The notes under the pieces are model-generated. The model did no database searches. It saw only the letters and a program-made list of their open reading frames with translations, and had not been told where the DNA came from. DNA of 64,000 nucleotides from Oscillospiraceae bacterium (GTDB lineage: Bacteria; Bacillota; Clostridia; Oscillospirales; UBA929): contig JAVBPM010000002.1 of NCBI GenBank assembly GCA_031549605.1, forward strand, positions 9,254-73,253, given 5' to 3'. The position numbers and the translations under genes are program-made. Below are positions 3,564 to 56,554 of this stretch, in pieces; positions within the stretch are counted from its first letter, which is position 1, and the number at the start of each line of letters is the position of its first letter.

Positions 3564-4901
3564 TCAGACAGCCTTCGGCTCGGCGTCGACGTCCGCTGGT
3601 TTGTGCCATTTGCCCGACAGCACGCGCGGCACAAAGAAGCAGGCGCGCCCAACCCAGTCGGCCATCATGGCCAGCCAGATGCCCAGCAGCCCCATGCCCA
3701 AAACCGTGCCCAGCAGCCACGAGCCTAGCAAACGCAGCACAAACAGCGAGCCAAGCGACGACTTCATGGTGTACACAGCGTCACCCGCGCCGCGCAGCGC
3801 ATTGGGCGTGACAAACGACGGCGCCCAAAAGACAATCGAGACAATCGAATAGAGCACCAGCACGGGAAAGGCCAGCTTGGCGGCCTCGGCGCCGATGGCA
3901 CTGGTGGTGTCGACGTTCATGGCAATCAACACGCGCAGGAAGGGCCACGACAGCAGCGAAATGGCCGCCTGCAGCAGACAGGCCAAGCCGGTCATTTTAA
4001 TCATATAGCGCTTGGCCTCGTCAAAGCGGCCGGCGCCATATGCCTGTCCCACCATGGTGACGACAATGACCTGCACGGCGCCGCCGGGCAACAGCAGCAG
4101 AGAGGTGATGTTGTTGCAGGCGACATTGGCGTTAAGCACCGCCTCGCCCATGCCCGACATAAAAACCATGACAACCAGCTTGGTGCCGTTGAAAAAGAGC
4201 GAATCCATGCCCGCCGGCACGGCAATGCGCAGCACTGGCCGCAGCACCGCCATATCCAGCTTGAGCGATAACTTGCCCAGCGGCATCGTGCCGTCGCCGC
4301 GCCACTGCACAAACATCAGGTAGCCGGCACAGGCGACCCGACTGGCGACAAGACCGCAGCCCAGCGCATCAATGCCCATGTCCAGCACATTCATGCAGAA
4401 GAAGGTGACAATTACCAGCGCCACATTGGCTAAAATGGAGGCAATCATGGGGCTGACATTGTTGCCGCGCGCCCGCATGATGCCCGACAAGGCCGAGTAA
4501 ATGGCCCACAACGGCAGCGTGGCCAGCGAATAGAGCAGATAGTTACTCGCCTGCGACTGTGTAGCGGGATGACTGCTGCCGAACAATAGCGAAATCATAG
4601 GCTGCCGCAGCACGCCCAACACCAGACCAATGCAAGCGGCGGCCATCGCCACCGCCACCACCGCCTGAGCCGCCGCATGGGCGGCCTGCCCCGTGTCGCC
4701 GCGCCCATACGCCTGCGCCACGACAACGGTGATGCCGCTGGAAAAGGCCATGAACAGACCAAACAGCACCATGTTGATGGATATGACAAGGCCGACCGCA
4801 GGCATGGTGTGCACCGAAATGCCCTTGCCCATAGCGGCCGACACAAAACTAACCAGCGTCGTCAGCAGCGATTCGGCCAGCACCGGCCAGAAAAGCGCCA
4901 T
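3564..4901 (-). CDS. MATE family efflux transporter
   Basis: Track ORF 3564..4988, a 12-TM MATE-like sequence. Start moved to ATG 4901 (MALFWPVLAESLL), which removes the 74-nt overlap with the upstream Fur-family gene. Confidence 0.85.
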   Translation of the reverse strand: MALFWPVLAESLLTTLVSFVSAAMGKGISVHTMPAVGLVISINMVLFGLFMAFSSGITVVVAQAYGRGDTGQAAHAAAQAVVAVAMAAACIGLVLGVLRQPMISLLFGSSHPATQSQASNYLLYSLATLPLWAIYSALSGIMRARGNNVSPMIASILANVALVIVTFFCMNVLDMGIDALGCGLVASRVACAGYLMFVQWRGDGTMPLGKLSLKLDMAVLRPVLRIAVPAGMDSLFFNGTKLVVMVFMSGMGEAVLNANVACNNITSLLLLPGGAVQVIVVTMVGQAYGAGRFDEAKRYMIKMTGLACLLQAAISLLSWPFLRVLIAMNVDTTSAIGAEAAKLAFPVLVLYSIVSIVFWAPSFVTPNALRGAGDAVYTMKSSLGSLFVLRLLGSWLLGTVLGMGLLGIWLAMMADWVGRACFFVPRVLSGKWHKPADVDAEPKAV

Positions 4902-8852: not shown

Positions 8853-8992
8853 CACTCCTTCCGGGGATGACCTTGGAAGGACCAATAAACGGTCCACTCT
8901 CCCTACGGCAGCATTACCTGCATCAGGTTCCAAGGGTTGACTGTGTCTACACAGTCTCTCAGCCGGCTCAAGGCCAGCACCCCGTCTTCAAA
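8853..8992 (-). promoter_or_regulatory. TPP (THI-box) riboswitch with SD-sequestering expression platform
   Basis: The minus strand reads GGGGTGC..GCTGAGA..AACCCTTGGAACCTGATGCAGGTAATGCTGCCGTAGGGA, matching the invariant THI-box elements. Downstream, CCTTCC (8880-8875) is complementary to the SD core GGAAGG (8862-8857) of thiT. Confidence 0.85.
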
Positions 8993-9001
8993 ATTCGGTT
9001 T

Positions 9002-12694: not shown

Positions 12695-12730
12695 AACGCG
12701 GACGCGCTTTGATAGCACGTCCGCGTTTTT

Positions 12731-19359: not shown

Positions 19360-19417
19360 ATGGTTACTCCTTCAATTCCAAATTGCGTGAGCGGCGGCGC
19401 ATGAGTCACGCGTTCAT

Positions 19418-19460
19418 AAAATGCGAGCATTTTTGTTGACACGCATGGCTCAGCGCTTAG
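19418..19460 (-). repeat. 43-nt box immediately downstream of the rpsG stop (copy 1)
   Basis: 38/43 identical to 20157-20199. Contains the mini-palindrome AAAATGC..GCATTTT. The 21 nt proximal to the stop codon (CACGCATGGCTCAGCGCTTAG on the plus strand) are identical in both copies. Confidence 0.85.
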
Positions 19461-19935: not shown

Positions 19936-20156
19936 TTGACTTCCCTCCTTCTAATAAATAGATTTCATAGGTACTCGAAAGATGAATTTTTCTCCCGTCG
20001 CGCCCTGTATGCAAACAAGGCAAATCCTTGGGCTAAACAATTCATGGTTGCGTCGAAAGGTGGCTAAGTTTTGCTGTGGCACGCTTCGCTCATGCTCTCA
20101 CTCCGCCCTGCCGTTTGTCCCCTCGGGACAATCGTCAGGTCTGCGTTCGGGTTCTC

Positions 20157-20199
20157 AAAATGCAAGCATTTTGTTCGCCACGCATGGCTCAGCGCTTAG
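20157..20199 (-). repeat. 43-nt box immediately downstream of the rpsL stop (copy 2)
   Basis: Same box as 19418-19460, ending 1 nt from the rpsL stop codon. Confidence 0.85.
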
Positions 20200-21503: not shown

Positions 21504-21532
21504 AAGGGCCGGAGCACAACGCTCCGGCCCTA
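21504..21532. repeat. Left copy of the duplicated 29-bp terminator-like hairpin flanking repeat copy A
   Basis: AAGGGCCGGAGCACAACGCTCCGGCCCTA with a 10-bp GC stem. It is 28/29 identical to 21784-21812; the only difference is in the loop. Confidence 0.9.
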
Positions 21533-21783
21533 CAGACTGTCAAAAAAGCGCGCACCGTAAAACCGGTGCCAGAAGAAAGAGGAGACGTCAACGCAAAGCC
21601 GTGTCTTGATTCTCGACTGACGATGTGTGGTGCATCGACAAGGTCGCTGCGCCGCAATGGTTTCACTTGCTGCAGAAACGCTGTCCTAGCGTACCGTCGT
21701 ACGCCGACGGACAGCGTTTCTTTGCCTGCGCACTTCTTTGTCAGTCTGTCAGCGTGTCAAAAAACAAGTTGTTTGACACGCTG
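21533..21783 (+). mobile_element. MITE-like non-coding repeat, copy A (251 bp)
   Basis: Starts CAGACTGTCAAAAAAG and ends GTTTGACACGCTG, which are imperfect terminal inverted repeats. It aligns along its length with 34558-34805 (reverse) and 51284-51532. Reading frames are not conserved between copies. Confidence 0.75.
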
Positions 21784-21812
21784 AAGGGCCGGAGCGCAAC
21801 GCTCCGGCCCTA
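21784..21812. repeat. Right copy of the duplicated 29-bp hairpin flanking repeat copy A
   Basis: AAGGGCCGGAGCGCAACGCTCCGGCCCTA. Confidence 0.9.
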
Positions 21813-29714: not shown

Positions 29715-29748
29715 TTAAAAAACGTGGCCGCAGCGCCACGTTTTTTTA
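29715..29748. terminator. Bidirectional intrinsic terminator at a convergent junction (single hairpin)
   Basis: AAAAAACGTGGC-CGCAGC-GCCACGTTTTTTT, that is an A-run, stem and T-run. Confidence 0.65.
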
Positions 29749-31317: not shown

Positions 31318-34300
31318 ATGAAAAAGAGGCACTTATCTCTCTTGCTGGCCATGACGCTGGTTGTGGCACTGTTTGCGCAAAGCGGCGCAGCACTCGAACC
31401 AAGCGCCGTCGTACGCCCCGTATTTACAGGCGCTACAATGCCCATTGAGCGCGGTCATACCATTGAGGACATTGTGGCGATGGCCGAGGCGCATCCGCAC
31501 ACCGGCTTTTCGCGCTACATCACCACGCGCTACGCCACAACGCCCAGTTTTACGGTGCCTTACGCCGCCGGGTCACTGAACACCGACGACCTGGATGACG
31601 CCAAGAACGCCATTATTATGTGCCGATACCTCGCCGGTGTGCCGTACGACAATGTCACACTGCCCAGCGAGCTCAACGATATAGCGCAACACGGCGCCGT
31701 TTTGCTGGCCGCCAGCAACCAGTTTGCACACGAGCCCACCAAGCCGGCCGATATGCCCGAAGCGTTTTTCGACAAGGGCTTTATCGGTTGCAGCAATGCC
31801 AACATCAATGCAGGCCGCACCAATATTTCCAACGTCGTCATTGGGCTGATGGCCGACGCCGGTGCAAACAACATTGAACGAGCGGGTCACAGGCGTTGGG
31901 TCTTGAAACCTTACAGCCAGGCCTTCGGTCTCGGATTTGCCCAGAACACCAGTGGCTCGATTTTGTATCAGGGCGCCCGCACCAATATGCACGTTTTTGA
32001 TAACTCCTCGGCCATGTATACCACCCAGGCCGACACCTACATTGCCTGGCCAAGCGCCGGCGCTTTTCCCATTCAATACTTTGCCTTTGAACACGGCATG
32101 ACCAGCGCACCCGCCTACCCTTGGTCGATTAACCTCGGCGCAGCATACAGCGCGCCCGACAAAGCGCTTATGACGCTGACGCTGACGCGTGCCCGCGACG
32201 GCAAGGTATGGACCTTCGACAAAAACACGCCCAGCCTGGCTGGCGTCGATAGCGCACCCGGCATGCACTTTGCCTCAGATGACGGCGGCTACGGTATTAG
32301 GAAAGCCATCACCTTCCGACCCGACTTGGCGTCGCTGGGCGCTCTTGAGGACGGCGACACGTTTACCGTCAACATCACCGGCATCAAAACGGCGGCCGGC
32401 GCCGACACGACACTCACCTACACCATCAACTTCTTTGACTTGGAAGCGGCCATGACGCCCATTGTGCCGGTTACCTTTACCATTAGCGGCACGAGCAAGA
32501 CCTACAACGGCGCGGCGCAGGGCGTAACAGTCACAGCCGATCCGGCCGGCGCGGAATACAGGGTGCTCTACAACGGTTCCACGACGCTGCCGAAAAACGC
32601 CGGCAGCTATGATGTGACTGTCGAGGCGACAGGCGAAGGCTTTACCGGCTCGCAGACAGCGACGCTGACCATCGCCAAAAAGTCACTGTCCGTTTCCGGA
32701 CTCACGGTCAAGAACCGCGGCTACAGTGCCGGCGACGTTTCCGCCGAGGTCGACGCCAGCGCCTACACGCTGACCGGCAAGGTGGCGGGCGACGATGTGG
32801 CGCTCAACACGGCACTGCTGTCCGCCGTTTTCTCCACCGATCAACCGGGCGCCAGCGTGCCGGCCGTTATTTCCGGCCTTGCACTTACGGGCAGTGACAG
32901 GAACAACTACACACTGGCGAGCACGACAGTGAACACCACGGCGGCCATTTATGCGTCCGTTGTGCCGGTCACCTTTACCGTTAGCGGCACGAGCAAAACC
33001 TACAACGGCGCGACGCAGGGCGTGTCCGTCTCCACAAGCCCGGCCGGCGCCGTTTATTCGGTGCGCTACAACGGCTCCACGACGCTGCCGAAAAACGCCG
33101 GCAGCTATGCCGTGGTTGTCGAGGCGACAGGAGAAGGCTTTACCGGCTCGCAGACAGCGACGCTGACTATCGCCAAAAAGACGTTGACCGTTTCCGGCCT
33201 CACAGTCAAGAACCGCGTCTACAGTGCCGGCGACGTCTCCGCCGAGGTCGACGCCAGCGCCTACACGCTGACCGGCAAGGTATCGGGCGACAATGTGGCG
33301 CTTAACACGGCGCTGCTTTCCGCCGTTTTCTCCACCGATCAACCGGGCGCCAACGTACCGGCCGTTATATCGGGTCTTGCCCTTACCGGCAGTGCCAGCG
33401 CAAACTACACGCTGGCGAGCACGACGGTGAACACCACGGCAGCCATTTATGCGTCCGTTGTGCCGGTTACCTTTACCATTAGCGGCACGAGCAAGACCTA
33501 CAACGGCGCGACGCAGGGCGTAACAGTCACCTCCAGCCCGACCGGCGCCGCCTATACGGTACGCTACAACGGCTCCACGACGCTGCCAAAAAACGCCGGC
33601 AGCTATGCTGTGGTTGTCGAGGCGACTGGCGCAGGCTTTACCGGCTCGCAGACTGCGACACTGACCATCGCCAAGAAGTCACTGTCCGTTTCAGGCCTCA
33701 AGGTCAAGAGCCGTAATTACAAGGCCGGCTCCGTCGCCGCCGAGGTCGACGCCAGCGCCTATTCGCTGGTCGGCAAGGTATCGGGCGACAATGTGGCGCT
33801 TAACACGGCGCTGCTCACCGCCAAGTTCTCCACCGACCAACCGGGCACCAGCGTGCCGGCCGTTATATCGGGCCTTGCCCTTACCGGCAGTGCCAGCGCC
33901 AACTACACGCTGGCGAGTACAACGGTAAACACCACGGCGGCCATTACGATGCCTGCGTGGATCAACCCCTATACCGATGTTGCGAAGAGCGACTGGTTCT
34001 ATAGCGCCGTTGCCTACGTCAGCCAGCGCGGTCTGATGTCGGGTATGGCGGGTGGCACCACCTTTGCGCCCATGGCTCCGTTGAGCCGCGCTATGGTCGC
34101 CACGGTGCTCTACCGCATGTCGGGCTCGCCGAGCGAGACCTACTCGGCTATCTTTACCGATGTGCCCAACGGCCAGTGGTACTCCAAGCCCATTACCTGG
34201 GCCTACCGGAACAACATTGTGGGCGGCAAGGGCAATGGTCTGTTTGGCACCAATGAGAACATTTCACGCGAACAGCTGGCCGCCATGATATACCGCTACG

Positions 34301-34525: not shown

Positions 34526-34557
34526 CAAAATGCCGGCCCATTCGGGCCGGCATTTTT
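34526..34557. repeat. Left copy of the duplicated 32-bp bidirectional-terminator hairpin flanking repeat copy B
   Basis: CAAAATGCCGGCCCATTCGGGCCGGCATTTTT. Confidence 0.9.
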
Positions 34558-34805
34558 CAGCGTGTCAAAAAACTTGTTATTGGCACGCTGACAGACTGAC
34601 AAAGAAGTGCGCAGGCAAAAAACACTGTCCGTCGGCGTACGATGGTACGCCAGGACAGCGTTTATGCAGCAAGTAAACCTTTGTGGCGCAGCGACTTTGT
34701 CGATGCGCCACAAATCATTAGGGGCAACTCAAAACGCAGCCTTACGTCGCCGTTTTCTCTTTTTTCTGACACCGGTTTTACGGTGCGCTCTTTTTTGACA
34801 GTCTG
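34558..34805 (-). mobile_element. MITE-like non-coding repeat, copy B (248 bp, inverted orientation)
   Basis: The reverse complement starts CAGACTGTCAAAAAAG and ends TTTTTGACACGCTG. It aligns with copies A and C throughout. Confidence 0.75.
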
Positions 34806-34837
34806 CAAAATGCCGACCCAAACGGGTCGGCATTTTT
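34806..34837. repeat. Right copy of the duplicated 32-bp hairpin flanking repeat copy B
   Basis: CAAAATGCCGACCCAAACGGGTCGGCATTTTT. It has 4 differences from the left copy, two of which form a compensatory stem pair. Confidence 0.9.
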
Positions 34838-44963: not shown

Positions 44964-45002
44964 CAAAAAAAACCGTCTGCCAATCAGGGCAGACGGTTTT
45001 TT
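44964..45002. terminator. Bidirectional intrinsic terminator at a convergent junction (single hairpin)
   Basis: AAAAAAAACCGTCTGCC-AATCAG-GGCAGACGGTTTTTT. Confidence 0.7.
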
Positions 45003-51249: not shown

Positions 51250-51283
51250 TAACGCCGCTTCCGATTGACCGGAAGCGGCGTTT
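51250..51283. repeat. Left copy of the duplicated 34-bp hairpin flanking repeat copy C
   Basis: TAACGCCGCTTCCGATTGACCGGAAGCGGCGTTT. Confidence 0.9.
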
Positions 51284-51532
51284 CAGACTGTCAAAAAAGC
51301 GCGCACCGTATAACCCGTGTCAGAAAAGAGCGTACGCGGCGACGTAAGGCGGCGTTTTGGTTCTCCGCTAAAGATTTGCGGCGCATTGACAAGATCACTG
51401 CGCCACAATGGTTTTACTTGCTGCAGAAACGTTGTCCTAGCGTACCATCGTACGCCGACGGACAGCGTTTCTTTGCCTGCGCATTTCTTTGTCAGTCTGC
51501 AGCGTGCCAAAAACAAGTTTTTTGACACGCTG
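51284..51532 (+). mobile_element. MITE-like non-coding repeat, copy C (249 bp)
   Basis: Starts CAGACTGTCAAAAAAG and ends TTTTTGACACGCTG. It aligns with copies A and B throughout. Confidence 0.75.
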
Positions 51533-51566
51533 TAACGCCGCTTCCGATTCGCCGGAAGCGGCGTTT
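51533..51566. repeat. Right copy of the duplicated 34-bp hairpin flanking repeat copy C
   Basis: TAACGCCGCTTCCGATTCGCCGGAAGCGGCGTTT. The two differences from the left copy are both in the loop. Confidence 0.9.
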
Positions 51567-52580: not shown

Positions 52581-52685
52581 GGTTATACCCCCACTGCGCC
52601 GCCCTTTTTTTCAACAGGGAAAGCGTAAATTTGACTTTCGCAAGCGGATACACTATAATTATACCCTACAGAAAGGGGGGTGTCT

Positions 52686-54221
52686 ATGCCGAGTTCGCGC
52701 CGCAGCGTTGTGTGCCTGTTGCTGAGCCTTATGCTGGTCTGTCTGTGCGGCTGCACCGAGACGCCCGTCGTTCAGGACACCGACAAATTGGGCGCCAACG
52801 ACTTTGCCAAAGACGCCATTCAATGGCTGTACAACAACGGCATTATTTCACAGCCTGAGCTGCAGCAGTTTAACGCCGGTATGCCCATTACGCCGTCCGA
52901 CTTCAGCCAGTGGCTGCAACGTGCCGAGCTGTCGACCAGCACCTTCGGCACCGCCGGTTCCATGGTCACCTGCAAGGATTTTGCCGAGTACGCCGTGTCG
53001 CTGCTCAACATGAGCAGCATTGCCTCACGTTACGGCGGCGTTGACGTCTGTCAGACCTTTAAGCTACTGCCCGAGGATATGAAGCTAACCTCTGACGCCG
53101 CCATGACGCGCGCGCAGGCCGCCTATTTTCTATGCAGTCTGAAGAGCGTACTGAAGAATAAAGCCGAGGGGCTGTACGCCTTTTACGCCATTTCGTCCTA
53201 CGACCAGCGCGACATGATTGAACAGCTGAGCGGCGTTAGCATGGGTTGGAGCCGCTTCGAGGTCACCGAGGACAGCGTCTACCTCAACACCAGCACCGAC
53301 AACGACAACGAGTACAGCATGCCCAACAGCAGCGAAGAGATTATCGAGCTGGCCGAGAGTCACAACGTGCCGTACAACCTGATGATTGCCGTCGGTGTCG
53401 GCACGGTCAACGGCATGCAAAAGGCCGAGCATCTGCTCAACACACCATCGCTGCGCGACAAGGCCATGACCGAGCTGCTCGATGTGGCACAAAACGGCGC
53501 TAAAACCAAAAACGGTGGCCGCATCCATTTCAAGGGCATCACACTGGATTTGGAGTGCATGGCCGGCGCTGAGGTGCGCGAGGCCTACAACGAGTTTGTC
53601 AAAGAGCTGCGAAACAAGCTGCCGGCCAACTACAACCTCATGATTTGCGTTCATCCGGCGCGCAGCAATGGGCGATCCTACTACAACGGCTACGACTTCA
53701 AGGTGTTGGGCGACAACAGCGACGGGCTGATTGTCATGGCGCACGACTACTACACCAAGTCGCTGTCGGAGGAGGAACAGTTAATCGGCGCGGTCAACAC
53801 GCCGCCGGCGCCCATTTACGAGCTCTACTACGCCATTAAATACGCCACCGACCCCACGACGGGCACTGACCCCAAGAAGGTATGGCTGGCGGTGTCCTTT
53901 GACAGTGTGCAGTGGCAGCTGGATGGCGGTCGCGTCAAAAACGCCACGCCCTACCACCCCACCTACGACGCCATTGCCGCGCGGCTGCCGTCGGCAACCG
54001 TCACACACGGCGACAGCGGCAACCCCAAAGCGGTGTGGGACGCTGACGGACTGAGCAACGTCATGTTCTACGAGGACACCTATTCGGTCATGCAGAAGCA
54101 GGCGCTGGCCGACGCCTTTGACATTGCCGGACTGTCGCTGTGGCGGCTGGGCTGCGTGCCCGACTTCGGTGCCGACATTGAACTGGACGTCTGGCAGTCG
54201 CTGATTAACCGCAACAAGTAA
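52686..54221 (+). CDS. Glycoside hydrolase family 18-like lipoprotein (YaaH/YdhD-like)
   Basis: Track ORF 52680..54221. ATG 52686 follows AAGGGGGG. It has the lipobox LCGCT and KGITLDLECM (a DxxDxDxE-type GH18 motif, partly degenerate). Confidence 0.7.
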   Translation: MPSSRRSVVCLLLSLMLVCLCGCTETPVVQDTDKLGANDFAKDAIQWLYNNGIISQPELQQFNAGMPITPSDFSQWLQRAELSTSTFGTAGSMVTCKDFAEYAVSLLNMSSIASRYGGVDVCQTFKLLPEDMKLTSDAAMTRAQAAYFLCSLKSVLKNKAEGLYAFYAISSYDQRDMIEQLSGVSMGWSRFEVTEDSVYLNTSTDNDNEYSMPNSSEEIIELAESHNVPYNLMIAVGVGTVNGMQKAEHLLNTPSLRDKAMTELLDVAQNGAKTKNGGRIHFKGITLDLECMAGAEVREAYNEFVKELRNKLPANYNLMICVHPARSNGRSYYNGYDFKVLGDNSDGLIVMAHDYYTKSLSEEEQLIGAVNTPPAPIYELYYAIKYATDPTTGTDPKKVWLAVSFDSVQWQLDGGRVKNATPYHPTYDAIAARLPSATVTHGDSGNPKAVWDADGLSNVMFYEDTYSVMQKQALADAFDIAGLSLWRLGCVPDFGADIELDVWQSLINRNK

Positions 54222-54276
54222 CTTACATATTAAAACGGCAGCCAACGGATGTTGGCTGCCGTTTTAATATGTAAGT
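54221..54276. terminator. Bidirectional terminator: perfect 26-bp-arm palindrome (single hairpin at a convergent junction)
   Basis: ACTTACATATTAAAACGGCAGCCAAC-GGAT-GTTGGCTGCCGTTTTAATATGTAAGT. The arms are exact reverse complements of each other. Confidence 0.7.
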
Positions 54277-54283
54277 TACTTGA

Positions 54284-56554
54284 TTACGCGCTCTCGGCTT
54301 CGGTAAACTGGCTGTTGTACAACTCGGCGTAGAAGCCCTGCTGTGCCATCAGCGCGTCGTGCGTGCCCTGCTCGATAATATTGCCGTCGCGCATGACCAA
54401 AATCAGGTCGGCGTTGCGGATGGTCGACAAGCGGTGAGCGATGATGAAGCTGGTTCGGTTTTGCATCAGTTTGTCCATCGCCTTTTGAATAAGCACCTCG
54501 GTGCGCGTGTCGACGCTGCTGGTCGCCTCGTCGAGAATCAAAATCTTGGGGTCGGACAGGAATGCACGGGCGATGGTCAGCAACTGTCGCTGGCCCTGCG
54601 AAATGTTGGCAGCGTCGTCGGTAATCATGGTGTTGTAGCCGTCAGACAGCGTGCGGATAAAGTGGTCGGCGTGTGCCATGTCGGCGGCATGCTCAACCTC
54701 TTGCAGCGTGGCTTCACCGCGTTTGCCGTAGGCGATGTTCTCCTCAATCGTGCCCGAGAACAGCCACGTGTCTTGCAGCACCATACCAAACTGATTGCGC
54801 AGTTCGTCGCGCGGCACGTCGGTGATGTCGGTGCCGTCGACGGTAATGCGGCCGCCATTGAGCTCGTAGAAGCGCATCAGCAGGTTGACGATGGTTGTCT
54901 TGCCGGCGCCCGTCGGGCCGACAATGGCCACGCGCTGACCCGGCTGAACGGTGAGTGTGATGTCCTCAATCAGCGGCTTGTCGGGCGTGTAGCGGAAGTT
55001 GACATGCTCGAAGGCAACGCGGCCCTGAAGCGGTTCGGCCAGTGTAACGCCCTTGTCGCTGTCGGGCAGCTGCTCCTCGGCGTCCAGCAGCTCAAAGACG
55101 CGCTCGGCGGAGGCGGCCGTTGACTGCAGCACGTTCATAATCGACGCCGTCTGGCCAATGGGCTGCACGAACTGACGGCTGTACTGCATCATGGCTGTGA
55201 CACTGCCCATTTTGATGTTGCCGCTGACAACCTGTAGGCCGCCGTAGACGCAGATGATGATAAAATTAAGGTTGTTGACAAAGTTCATCAGCGGCATGAC
55301 GACGCCCGACACAAACTGCGCCTTGAATGACGAGCTGGTCAGCTTTTCGTTTTCGGCCTGGAAGGTTTCAATGCTCTCCTTCTCATGGCCAAAGACGCGC
55401 ACGACGTTGTGGCCGCTGTACATCTCCTCGATGTGGCTGTTGAGCGTGCCGGTGGTTGCCCACTGCTCGCTAAAGTATTTCTGCGAACGCTTCATGATAA
55501 TGCCGACCAGCGTAAAGACCAGCGGCAGCACCACCAGGCAGATTAGGGTCATGGGAATGCTGATGGTCAGCATCATGATCAGCACGCCGATTACCGTCAG
55601 CACCGAGGTGATCATCTGCACCAAATTCTGCTGCAGCGTGGCGCTAATATTGTCGACGTCGTTGGTGACCCGGCTGAGCAACTCACCGCGCGTCTGACCG
55701 TCGTAGTAAGACAGCGGCAGGCGCGCCAGCTTGCCGTCGACCTGCTTGCGCAGCGTGTAGATGACGCCGCGGCTGATGTCGGCCATGACATACTGCTGAA
55801 TCCAGCCGAAGATGGCGGATATCAGGTAGAGCCCCAGCATAAACAGCAGCACATTGCCCAGCTTGGGAAAGTCAATCGGCTTTTTGAACAGGGCAACAAA
55901 GTCAAAGTTGTCGGGCAGCTTGAGTTCGCCCGACTGGACGTCCTGCATCACCGCGCCCACCAGTTGCTCGTTGAGCTTGAGCTGGCCCAGATTGATTTTG
56001 CCATCCTCCACGGCGTAGCCAATTTGATACTTGTCAATCAGCGGTTGGGTCAGGCCCAGCGCGCTGTAATTGACCGTGCCCAGCCCCAGGTTGGCCAGAT
56101 TGACCTTGGACAAATCAATTTGTTGCATCAGTGCGCCCATGGCCTGCTGCTGGTCGGCCGACTGTTCGGTTGTCTCGGCGTCGCCGGACAGCGTGCCGCT
56201 CAGGTCGGCAATCTCGATCTTACCCTCGTCGTTGACGGGCAGCTCCAACTGCTTGGCGGTGTCGACGGTCATACCCAGATCGGTCACAGCAATGGCCGAA
56301 GGCGGGAAAATAGCGTCGCTGATGACATTGATGCCTTTTTCCAGCACCTTGGGGCCCCACAGGTTAAAGGTAACGCTGGCAACGGCTGCCACCAGCATGA
56401 TGATGAGCTTGGTGCGCTGTGGGCGCATATAGCGCAGCAGGCGGCGCATGGAGCCCTTGAAATTGCTTGCCTTCTCTCCGCTGCCCATCATGCCGCCCAT
56501 CGGGCCGCCGCCGTGACGGCGCTGGGGTCGGTCGTGTTTCTTTGAATTGCTCAT
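54284..56554 (-). CDS. ABC transporter permease/ATP-binding protein (type IV exporter half-transporter) with enlarged first extracytoplasmic loop
   Basis: 756 aa with Walker A GPTGAGKTT, the signature ISQGQRQ and Walker B ILILDEATS. About 160 aa lie between TM1 and TM2. Confidence 0.9.
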   Translation of the reverse strand: MSNSKKHDRPQRRHGGGPMGGMMGSGEKASNFKGSMRRLLRYMRPQRTKLIIMLVAAVASVTFNLWGPKVLEKGINVISDAIFPPSAIAVTDLGMTVDTAKQLELPVNDEGKIEIADLSGTLSGDAETTEQSADQQQAMGALMQQIDLSKVNLANLGLGTVNYSALGLTQPLIDKYQIGYAVEDGKINLGQLKLNEQLVGAVMQDVQSGELKLPDNFDFVALFKKPIDFPKLGNVLLFMLGLYLISAIFGWIQQYVMADISRGVIYTLRKQVDGKLARLPLSYYDGQTRGELLSRVTNDVDNISATLQQNLVQMITSVLTVIGVLIMMLTISIPMTLICLVVLPLVFTLVGIIMKRSQKYFSEQWATTGTLNSHIEEMYSGHNVVRVFGHEKESIETFQAENEKLTSSSFKAQFVSGVVMPLMNFVNNLNFIIICVYGGLQVVSGNIKMGSVTAMMQYSRQFVQPIGQTASIMNVLQSTAASAERVFELLDAEEQLPDSDKGVTLAEPLQGRVAFEHVNFRYTPDKPLIEDITLTVQPGQRVAIVGPTGAGKTTIVNLLMRFYELNGGRITVDGTDITDVPRDELRNQFGMVLQDTWLFSGTIEENIAYGKRGEATLQEVEHAADMAHADHFIRTLSDGYNTMITDDAANISQGQRQLLTIARAFLSDPKILILDEATSSVDTRTEVLIQKAMDKLMQNRTSFIIAHRLSTIRNADLILVMRDGNIIEQGTHDALMAQQGFYAELYNSQFTEAESA

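Follow-up and report, generated by a model that had tools for sequence, protein, structure and literature searches.

What kind of element leaves a complete stem-loop on each of its two sides? The question is raised by a 64,000-nt stretch of contig JAVBPM010000002.1 from an Oscillospiraceae bacterium (the whole of this stretch is hereafter called the window, to which all coordinates refer). Three copies of a repeat of about 250 bp are found in it between convergent genes, each standing between two near-identical copies of a GC-rich hairpin. A first-pass annotation of this DNA left the repeat unclassified and compared its insertion with spacer integration by Cas1-Cas2. [quoted passage not shown]

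The three copies of about 250 bp, as located in the first-pass annotation, were confirmed by direct reading and alignment:

21533-21783, plus strand: copy A, 251 bp, non-coding
34558-34805, minus strand: copy B, 248 bp
51284-51532, plus strand: copy C, 249 bp

Pairwise identities among copies A, B and C are 86.5, 85.7 and 89.2%. A core 17-mer has three exact occurrences in the window (0.29 matches expected by chance with up to 3 mismatches), and a terminal 16-mer has nine matches (0.28 expected), both counts being well above those in shuffled sequence. The flanking genes are convergent at all three copies, in agreement with the earlier description. According to the open reading frame (ORF) map and a hairpin scan, the window (GC content, 59.6%) holds seven convergent gene junctions, three of which are occupied by the repeat; the other four carry a single hairpin, as had also been stated.

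The element is bracketed at each locus by the following sequences:

21504-21532: left target duplication of copy A, composed of A, the stem-loop AGGGCCGGAGC(A)CAACGCTCCGGCCCT and A, with a perfect stem at 21505-21531
21784-21812: right target duplication of copy A, identical to the left one at 28 of 29 positions
34526-34557: target duplication of copy B beside the right end of the element (which lies on the minus strand), with a 13-bp stem at 34527-34556
34806-34837: target duplication of copy B beside the left repeat, identical to its partner at 28 of 32 positions
51250-51283: left target duplication of copy C, composed of T, a stem-loop (13-bp stem, 6-nt loop) and T
51533-51566: right target duplication of copy C, identical to the left one at 32 of 34 positions, both differences being in the loop

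For copy A, the identity is that noted previously for the direct duplication of a GC-rich stem-loop around the element. In an unbiased repeat scan of the window, the three hairpin pairs are among the 20 largest direct-repeat families, and they are the only two-copy families of about 30 nt with at least 88% identity, each with a spacing of about 280 nt. The duplications are 29 nt (A), 32 nt (B) and 34 nt (C) long. When the perfect stems found by a scan of the window were compared with the boundaries of the direct repeats, the duplication was found in all six hairpin copies to consist of the longest perfect stem-loop plus exactly 1 unpaired nt per side: A + [12-bp stem, 3-nt loop] + A for copy A, A + [13-bp stem, 4-nt loop] + G for copy B, and T + [13-bp stem, 6-nt loop] + T for copy C. 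The earlier observation that the duplication length follows hairpin size can thus be sharpened to a rule of one stem-loop and 1 nt beyond each foot. The loci differ in how many A:T pairs extend past the GC core (1, 5 and 2), indicating that the cut tracks the end of base pairing rather than the GC core or the sequence. An alignment of the three loci reveals no primary sequence shared among the three target hairpins; the sequence differs at each locus, and the hairpins belong to the host target and not to the element, as originally proposed.

The two hairpins of a pair have diverged by 3-12%. Those of copy A have a one-base difference at the loop-proximal top of the stem. Those of copy B differ by two loop bases and one compensatory stem pair, in which A:T is replaced by G:C (GCCGACCC/GGGTCGGC to GCCGGCCC/GGGCCGGC). 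This extent of divergence, with stems kept by loop-only or compensatory changes, suggests that the insertions are old, and both hairpins of each pair appear to be selectively maintained. These features support the view that a complete stem-loop has undergone genuine target-site duplication at each locus. The hairpins at the four unoccupied convergent junctions served as comparison sites:

12697-12728: single hairpin
29717-29746: single hairpin
44967-45002: single hairpin
54215-54282: perfect palindrome of 68 bp with 32-bp arms and the loop GGAT

The last of these is far longer than the other terminator hairpins of the window, and its arms take in the last codons and the stop codons of both neighbouring genes, one for a GH18 protein (52680-54221, plus strand) and the other at 54284-56554 (minus strand).

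The architecture of the element is illustrated by copy A:

21533-21554, plus strand: left terminal inverted repeat CAGACTGTCAAAAAAGCGCGCA, matching the IS1182-family repeat consensus over its first 16 nt
21675-21720, plus strand: internal hairpin GAAACGCTGTCC...GGACAGCGTTTC followed by TTTG, nearly invariant and terminator-like on the plus strand
21727-21748, minus strand: subterminal right repeat TGCGCACTTCTTTGTCAGTCTG, which pairs with the left terminal repeat
21750-21783: terminal 34-nt hairpin CAGCGTGTCAAA-N10-TTTGACACGCTG with two repeat-like motifs, the outer arm being the right end

The 22-nt left repeat pairs with the subterminal right repeat at element positions 195-216, and the separate terminal hairpin begins one base after the latter. 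A 12-nt motif, CAGNNTGNCAAA, is present four times per copy, first in the forward orientation and then, further on, in reverse, forward and reverse orientations. The duplications adjoin the outer motif, which makes the mobile unit the full 250 bp. The imperfect terminal inverted repeats of the first-pass annotation are real as to the presence of such repeats, but the ends are more complex, having a subterminal right repeat and a separate terminal hairpin of 34 nt. The 3' 80 nt before the right repeat (alignment columns 136-216), which include the perfect hairpin, are 91% invariant, and the 5' central part is only 67% invariant. The element folds much more stably than its shuffles do, with z = -7.7 and -8.5 on its two strands (-7.7 for copy A as a single strand).

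It had been thought that no reading frame is conserved among the copies. One minus-strand frame is in fact open over about 45 codons in all three; a profile of this frame matches no protein among 5.8 billion proteins, and the element can thus still be regarded as non-coding. The comparison with Rfam that had been advised gave no family at threshold on the element, the best being the small RNA family BjrC68 (RF02353; 29.9 bits against a gathering score of 39), and permissive thresholds yielded sub-threshold, generic two-hairpin matches only. No sigma-70 promoter was detected by a scan in or around copies A and C, and the signals from a strand-specific test for RNA selection, which used G:U-compatible changes, were mixed between the strands. 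A length of 248-251 bp, 22-nt repeats, a lack of coding capacity and duplications at all three copies are the generic hallmarks of MITEs, and they support a small, non-coding mobile element bearing terminal inverted repeats. Like the generic bacterial MITEs (Correia/NEMIS, RUP, ERIC and MITEAba12), the element is small, non-coding, strongly folded and present in multiple intergenic copies with terminal inverted repeats, and like them it is presumably mobilised in trans. Generic MITEs make short duplications whose length is fixed (2-9 bp) and is not set by the secondary structure of the target, whereas the duplication made by this element is set by the target stem-loop.

The termini connect the element with the IS1182 family. 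Annotated members of this family were taken from plasmids, and the ends or the terminal repeat pair were readable in 22 of the 23. The comparator transposases have the DUF772, DDE_Tnp_1 and DDE_Tnp_1_6 domains, and the terminal 16-nt consensus is GAGGCTGTGACATAA and GGGGCTGTCCCAAAAG in Firmicutes and CAGACYGTGTGAAAAC in Proteobacteria. A 16-nt weight matrix was built solely from 18 plasmid-borne members with readable ends and used to scan both strands of the window (127,970 positions). Seven of the eight best positions are termini of the element: the left end stands at ranks 2-4 with 16.7 bits, and the motif CAGCGTGTCAAAAAAC, which copies B and C have as their outer right end, at ranks 5-7 with 15.2 bits. 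The outer right arm of copy A scores 10.5 bits in the same matrix. An earlier matrix made from nine members, mostly of Firmicutes with one of Rhizobium, gave 9.55 bits, a score reached by only seven unrelated positions; the leave-one-out scores of true members in that matrix range from 7.2 to 22.3 bits. Two high-scoring matches to the matrix outside the elements, at 52842 and 49480, lie inside coding sequence and have no partner, and they were treated as chance.

Against the sampled IS1182-family repeats, the left end attains a best identity of 12/16 and the right end one of 13/16, levels reached by 6e-4 and 2.5e-5, respectively, of random 16-mers of the window. The element shares its first 8 nt, CAGACTGT, with the end of the IS1182-family element on the Pseudomonas aeruginosa plasmid pTJPa150 (L121), and in both of them this match begins at the boundary given by the duplication. 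The terminal repeats as a whole agree with the family consensus (about GAGGCTGTGTCAAAAC or CAGACYGTGTGAAAAC), and the match begins exactly at the duplication boundary. This is good, but not conclusive, sequence evidence that the repeat is an IS1182-type MITE, so that it should no longer be called unclassified. The repeat is probably a non-autonomous MITE, its most likely source of mobility being an IS1182-family DDE transposase acting in trans.

Hairpin targeting is already known for the IS1182 family. In staphylococci, IS1272 and TnSha1 insert into hairpins, several of which are confirmed terminators, without sequence specificity (PMC4923244), and the targeting of hairpins and terminators by this family is directed by structure (PMC4923244, PMC5678879). 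With these elements, joining takes place at the stem base and the stem-loop is deleted, a process called 'stem-loop replacing' transposition (Furi et al., 2016, PMC4923244; Wan et al., 2017, PMC5678879). Likewise, the element of the window targets hairpins or terminators by structure with no sequence consensus, and its insertion points are at the base of the stem-loop. Its terminal repeats are of the same type (GAGTCTGGGACATAAA in IS1272 against CAGACTGTCAAAAAAG in the element), and extra repeat-like copies at one end are a further common feature, TnSha1 having three and some IS1272 having tandem duplications on the left side. On the other hand, IS1272 is a 1.9-kb insertion sequence (IS) that removes the stem-loop partly or wholly and makes no duplication, whereas the element is a 250-bp non-coding sequence that duplicates the entire stem-loop with 1 nt per side. 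An outcome of this kind was foreseen in the cruciform-target model, in which joining by a hypothetical 'pathway b', at the 5' feet, yields two copies of the complete stem-loop (Wan et al., 2017, PMC5678879).

Proteobacterial members with ends of the form CAGAC(C/T)GTGTGAAAAC were compared as a set: ISPa7, ISPmo1, the pTJPa150 element, and those on a Rhodovulum plasmid (L125), a Methylocystis plasmid (L124) and a Stenotrophomonas plasmid (L127). Their terminal nucleotides are nearly the same as those of the element, and their sites are also palindromic or partly so. The pTJPa150 element (403-2032) sits in a terminator-like hairpin, arranged as AAAAAGCCCGGC-TCACT/IS/TCACT-GCCGGGCTTTTT, and the Rhodovulum element (pRGUI03, 405-2125) lies between 24-nt arms with ACAA duplicated. 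In both cases, with ends CAGACTGTGTGAAAAC or CAGACCGTGTGAAAA, the insertion is exactly in the hairpin loop, the loop is duplicated and the stem arms are left on opposite sides. The Methylocystis element duplicates CAAG and the Stenotrophomonas element GACC, both in weaker or only partial dyads, and several other proteobacterial members duplicate GGCC. ISPa7 (L116) and ISPmo1 (L119), which are related to each other, occupy the same GCTGCC-GGCC-ATCAGC site beside intI1 of class 1 integrons in opposite orientations, both with GGCC duplicated. Unlike these members, which make a 4-5-bp duplication and split the arms, the element of the window leaves the hairpin intact and duplicated. Firmicute members have flanks of the form A-tract/IS/T-tract or split-stem flanks, consistent with loss of the hairpin.

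The duplication of 29-34 bp therefore stands against family outcomes of deletion with no duplication or a duplication of 4-5 bp, and it corresponds only to the hypothetical pathway b. The first-pass annotation had left room for a described family whose behaviour explains the flanks; the documented behaviour of IS1182 members explains the hairpin targeting, but not the duplication of a whole hairpin. As far as the accessible literature and the sampled members go, precise whole-hairpin duplication with 1 nt on each side has so far been only a predicted pathway. The ISfinder table reportedly gives direct repeats of 0-60 bp for the family; if this is right, it suggests that curators have already met long repeats.

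How might a whole stem-loop be duplicated? The transposase would recognise the palindrome by its shape, as published for IS1272, and joining would occur at the feet of the extruded hairpin, 1 nt outside each of them, and its 5' polarity would lead to a duplication. In an extruded cruciform only some 2 nt would separate the two joining points across the four-way junction, while in linear DNA the distance is 29-34 nt. Gap repair would then copy the entire stem-loop, so that each convergent gene would keep a hairpin. If the duplex were linear, a fixed transpososome would not easily account for a stagger of 29-34 nt whose size depends on the length of the stem. Cleavage at both bases of a hairpin or cruciform, as suggested in the first-pass annotation, remains the simplest geometry and is strengthened by the rule of 1 nt beyond each foot. 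The element would thus show a third outcome in the family, a duplication that results from joining at the stem base with 5' polarity. A more general scheme, which is possible but is put forward only tentatively, is that one IS1182-type transpososome with a fixed spacing of its active sites attacks the palindrome dyad in whichever conformation it is met. Linear B-form DNA would be attacked at the apex to give a 4-5-bp duplication, as in the pTJPa150 and pRGUI03 elements; an extruded cruciform would be attacked 1 nt outside each foot, so that the stem-loop is duplicated in full, as in the MITE; and joining at opposite feet would delete the stem-loop, as in IS1272.

Further copies or relatives were sought in several collections. 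A blastn search with copy A against plasmids and phages gave no match, nor did a scan of viral contigs with three patterns of 22-27 nt or a metagenome scan with the 22-mer core. The 17-mer CGTACGCCGACGGACAG matched 97 genome-contig loci, all of which were set aside as chance in GC-rich genomes, the pattern being too short. Three metagenome matches to the paired-end pattern CAGACTGTCAAA-N178-208-TTTGTCAGTCTG were also attributed to chance, two being in coding sequence and one in an octamer-repeat array. The latter (L100, Ga0105092_10011123, 4290-4630) consists of inverted arrays of CAGACTGA/CAAACTGA octamer repeats around a GC-rich hairpin and is unrelated to the element. The flank proteins and ribosomal protein S7 of the window are singletons at 90% clustering, and no close relative of the host was found in the protein collections searched. 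For the 146-aa flank protein of copy B, the next best homologue is 65% identical, and the named matches are from Feifaniaceae, Oscillospiraceae and Clostridia. Look-ups of identical proteins for the flanking genes yielded a single 1.1-kb Logan contig of the same strain, and neither an empty site nor a further copy was recovered from the collections covered. The host is an isolated, rare lineage of Clostridia.

Several points weigh against the IS1182 assignment and the integration scheme. The rule of one stem-loop with 1 nt per side is drawn from three copies. The terminal repeats are short and A-rich, 'CTGTCAAAA' of the element is 2 nt shorter than 'CTGTGTGAAAA' of the family, which makes a mid-repeat register difference, and the nine-member matrix gives the subterminal right repeat a low score. 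No transposase gene was noticed among the listed ORFs of the window (a listing, not a domain scan), and none with these ends was found. Duplication of a whole hairpin is seen in none of the 22 IS1182-family members with readable ends. Extrusion of a cruciform is deduced rather than observed, and in the twin-supercoiled-domain model the DNA between convergent genes is expected to be positively supercoiled, which disfavours extrusion. An alternative that draws on part of this evidence is that the repeat is a MITE of another or undescribed DDE family, with ends that resemble those of IS1182 by convergence or coincidence and with hairpin targeting that evolved independently. The A-rich end match of only 12-13 of 16 nt, the 2-nt register difference, the failure to find a parent element (in the genome-contig, viral, metagenome, plasmid and phage searches) and the lack of whole-hairpin duplication among the sampled members would fit with it. 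However, such an origin is rather unlikely, given that seven of the top eight matrix positions among about 128,000 are termini of the element, in the right register at the duplication boundary, and that IS1182 is the very family whose members are published as structure-directed hairpin targeters.

The other explanations concern the origin of the paired hairpins or the nature of the enzyme. If tandem hairpins had existed beforehand, the element might have inserted at the centre of the larger dyad with a tiny duplication or none, since two tandem copies of a palindrome make a larger near-palindrome and the proteobacterial members duplicate 4-5 bp only, at the dyad centre of an evident hairpin in the pTJPa150 and pRGUI03 elements. 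This is very unlikely: all four unoccupied convergent junctions have a single hairpin, no element-free pair of tandem hairpins is present among the reported repeat families of the window, a near-identical pre-existing pair would be needed at three unrelated loci, and the loops of the paired hairpins are in direct rather than mirrored orientation. A non-DDE enzyme that measures or recognises the repeat unit, for example a casposase of the Cas1-like kind or some other integrase of the ruler type, is formally similar in that casposon or Cas1-Cas2 integration also leaves a palindromic unit on both sides of the insert, from which the analogy in the first-pass annotation arose. Casposons duplicate about 14-15 bp by a fixed ruler, and CRISPR integration duplicates one repeat. 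The duplication considered here varies with stem length (29, 32 and 34 nt) instead of being fixed, and neither sequence-specific leader or target cues nor Cas1 chemistry is seen; moreover, the targets have no common sequence, the termini match a DDE family, and no cas1-like or integrase gene was noticed among the ORFs listed for the window, a listing rather than a domain scan. The analogy is thus unnecessary, and an enzyme of this type is highly improbable. Hardly more credit can be given to a single-strand element of the HUH/Y1 type (IS200/IS605-PATE, REP/RAYT) or to a structured small-RNA gene spread by recombination, which the extreme folding, the subterminal and terminal hairpins and the sub-threshold similarity to BjrC68 might recall. 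HUH elements make no target duplication and use a fixed 4-5-nt target, in contrast to the long duplications, terminal repeats and lack of a conserved target found here; for a small RNA, no Rfam family reaches its threshold, and one-sided substitutions favour neither strand consistently.

The genes around the three copies of the putative IS1182-type MITE are of various kinds. Copy A lies between the genes for a DUF1801 protein and a putative lipoprotein with no Pfam match, copy B between those for an SLH surface protein and the 146-aa protein, and copy C between those for a membrane protein and ApbE. The gene next to copy B, which encodes a 1066-aa SLH/MBG/YDG surface protein, contains three tandem 498-bp repeats with 87% identity at 32456-33751. 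Elsewhere in the window, a 52-nt direct repeat with 85% identity is found at 19409-19460 and 20148-20199, in each case directly 3' of a gene on the minus strand (rpsG and rpsL), and it may be a shared regulatory or processing element of the ribosomal protein operon. Of the Rfam families, one alone passes its gathering threshold in the window, namely a thiamine pyrophosphate (TPP) riboswitch (RF00059, 60.7 bits) at 8883-8994 on the minus strand.

The three loci are clear-cut natural cases of integration directed by structure in which a complete terminator stem-loop is copied, and they tie an anonymous repeat to the poorly understood IS1182 family. The geometric rule of 1 nt beyond each foot is testable on any genome that harbours this family. 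In annotation, care is needed not to take the duplicated hairpins for part of the repeat. The element also breaks assemblies, as exemplified by the Logan contig L098 (SRR23967709, 1120 bp) of the same strain, whose sequence stops 30 nt inside copy A. Its insertion creates tandem terminators and possibly extended 3' untranslated regions. One mechanism could explain three outcomes at hairpins, namely deletion, apex duplication and duplication of the whole hairpin. If the choice among them is indeed made by the conformation of the target, the duplication length would serve as a fossil record of the in vivo DNA conformation at terminators, and duplication of the whole hairpin would let the element colonise bidirectional terminators with neither gene losing its hairpin.

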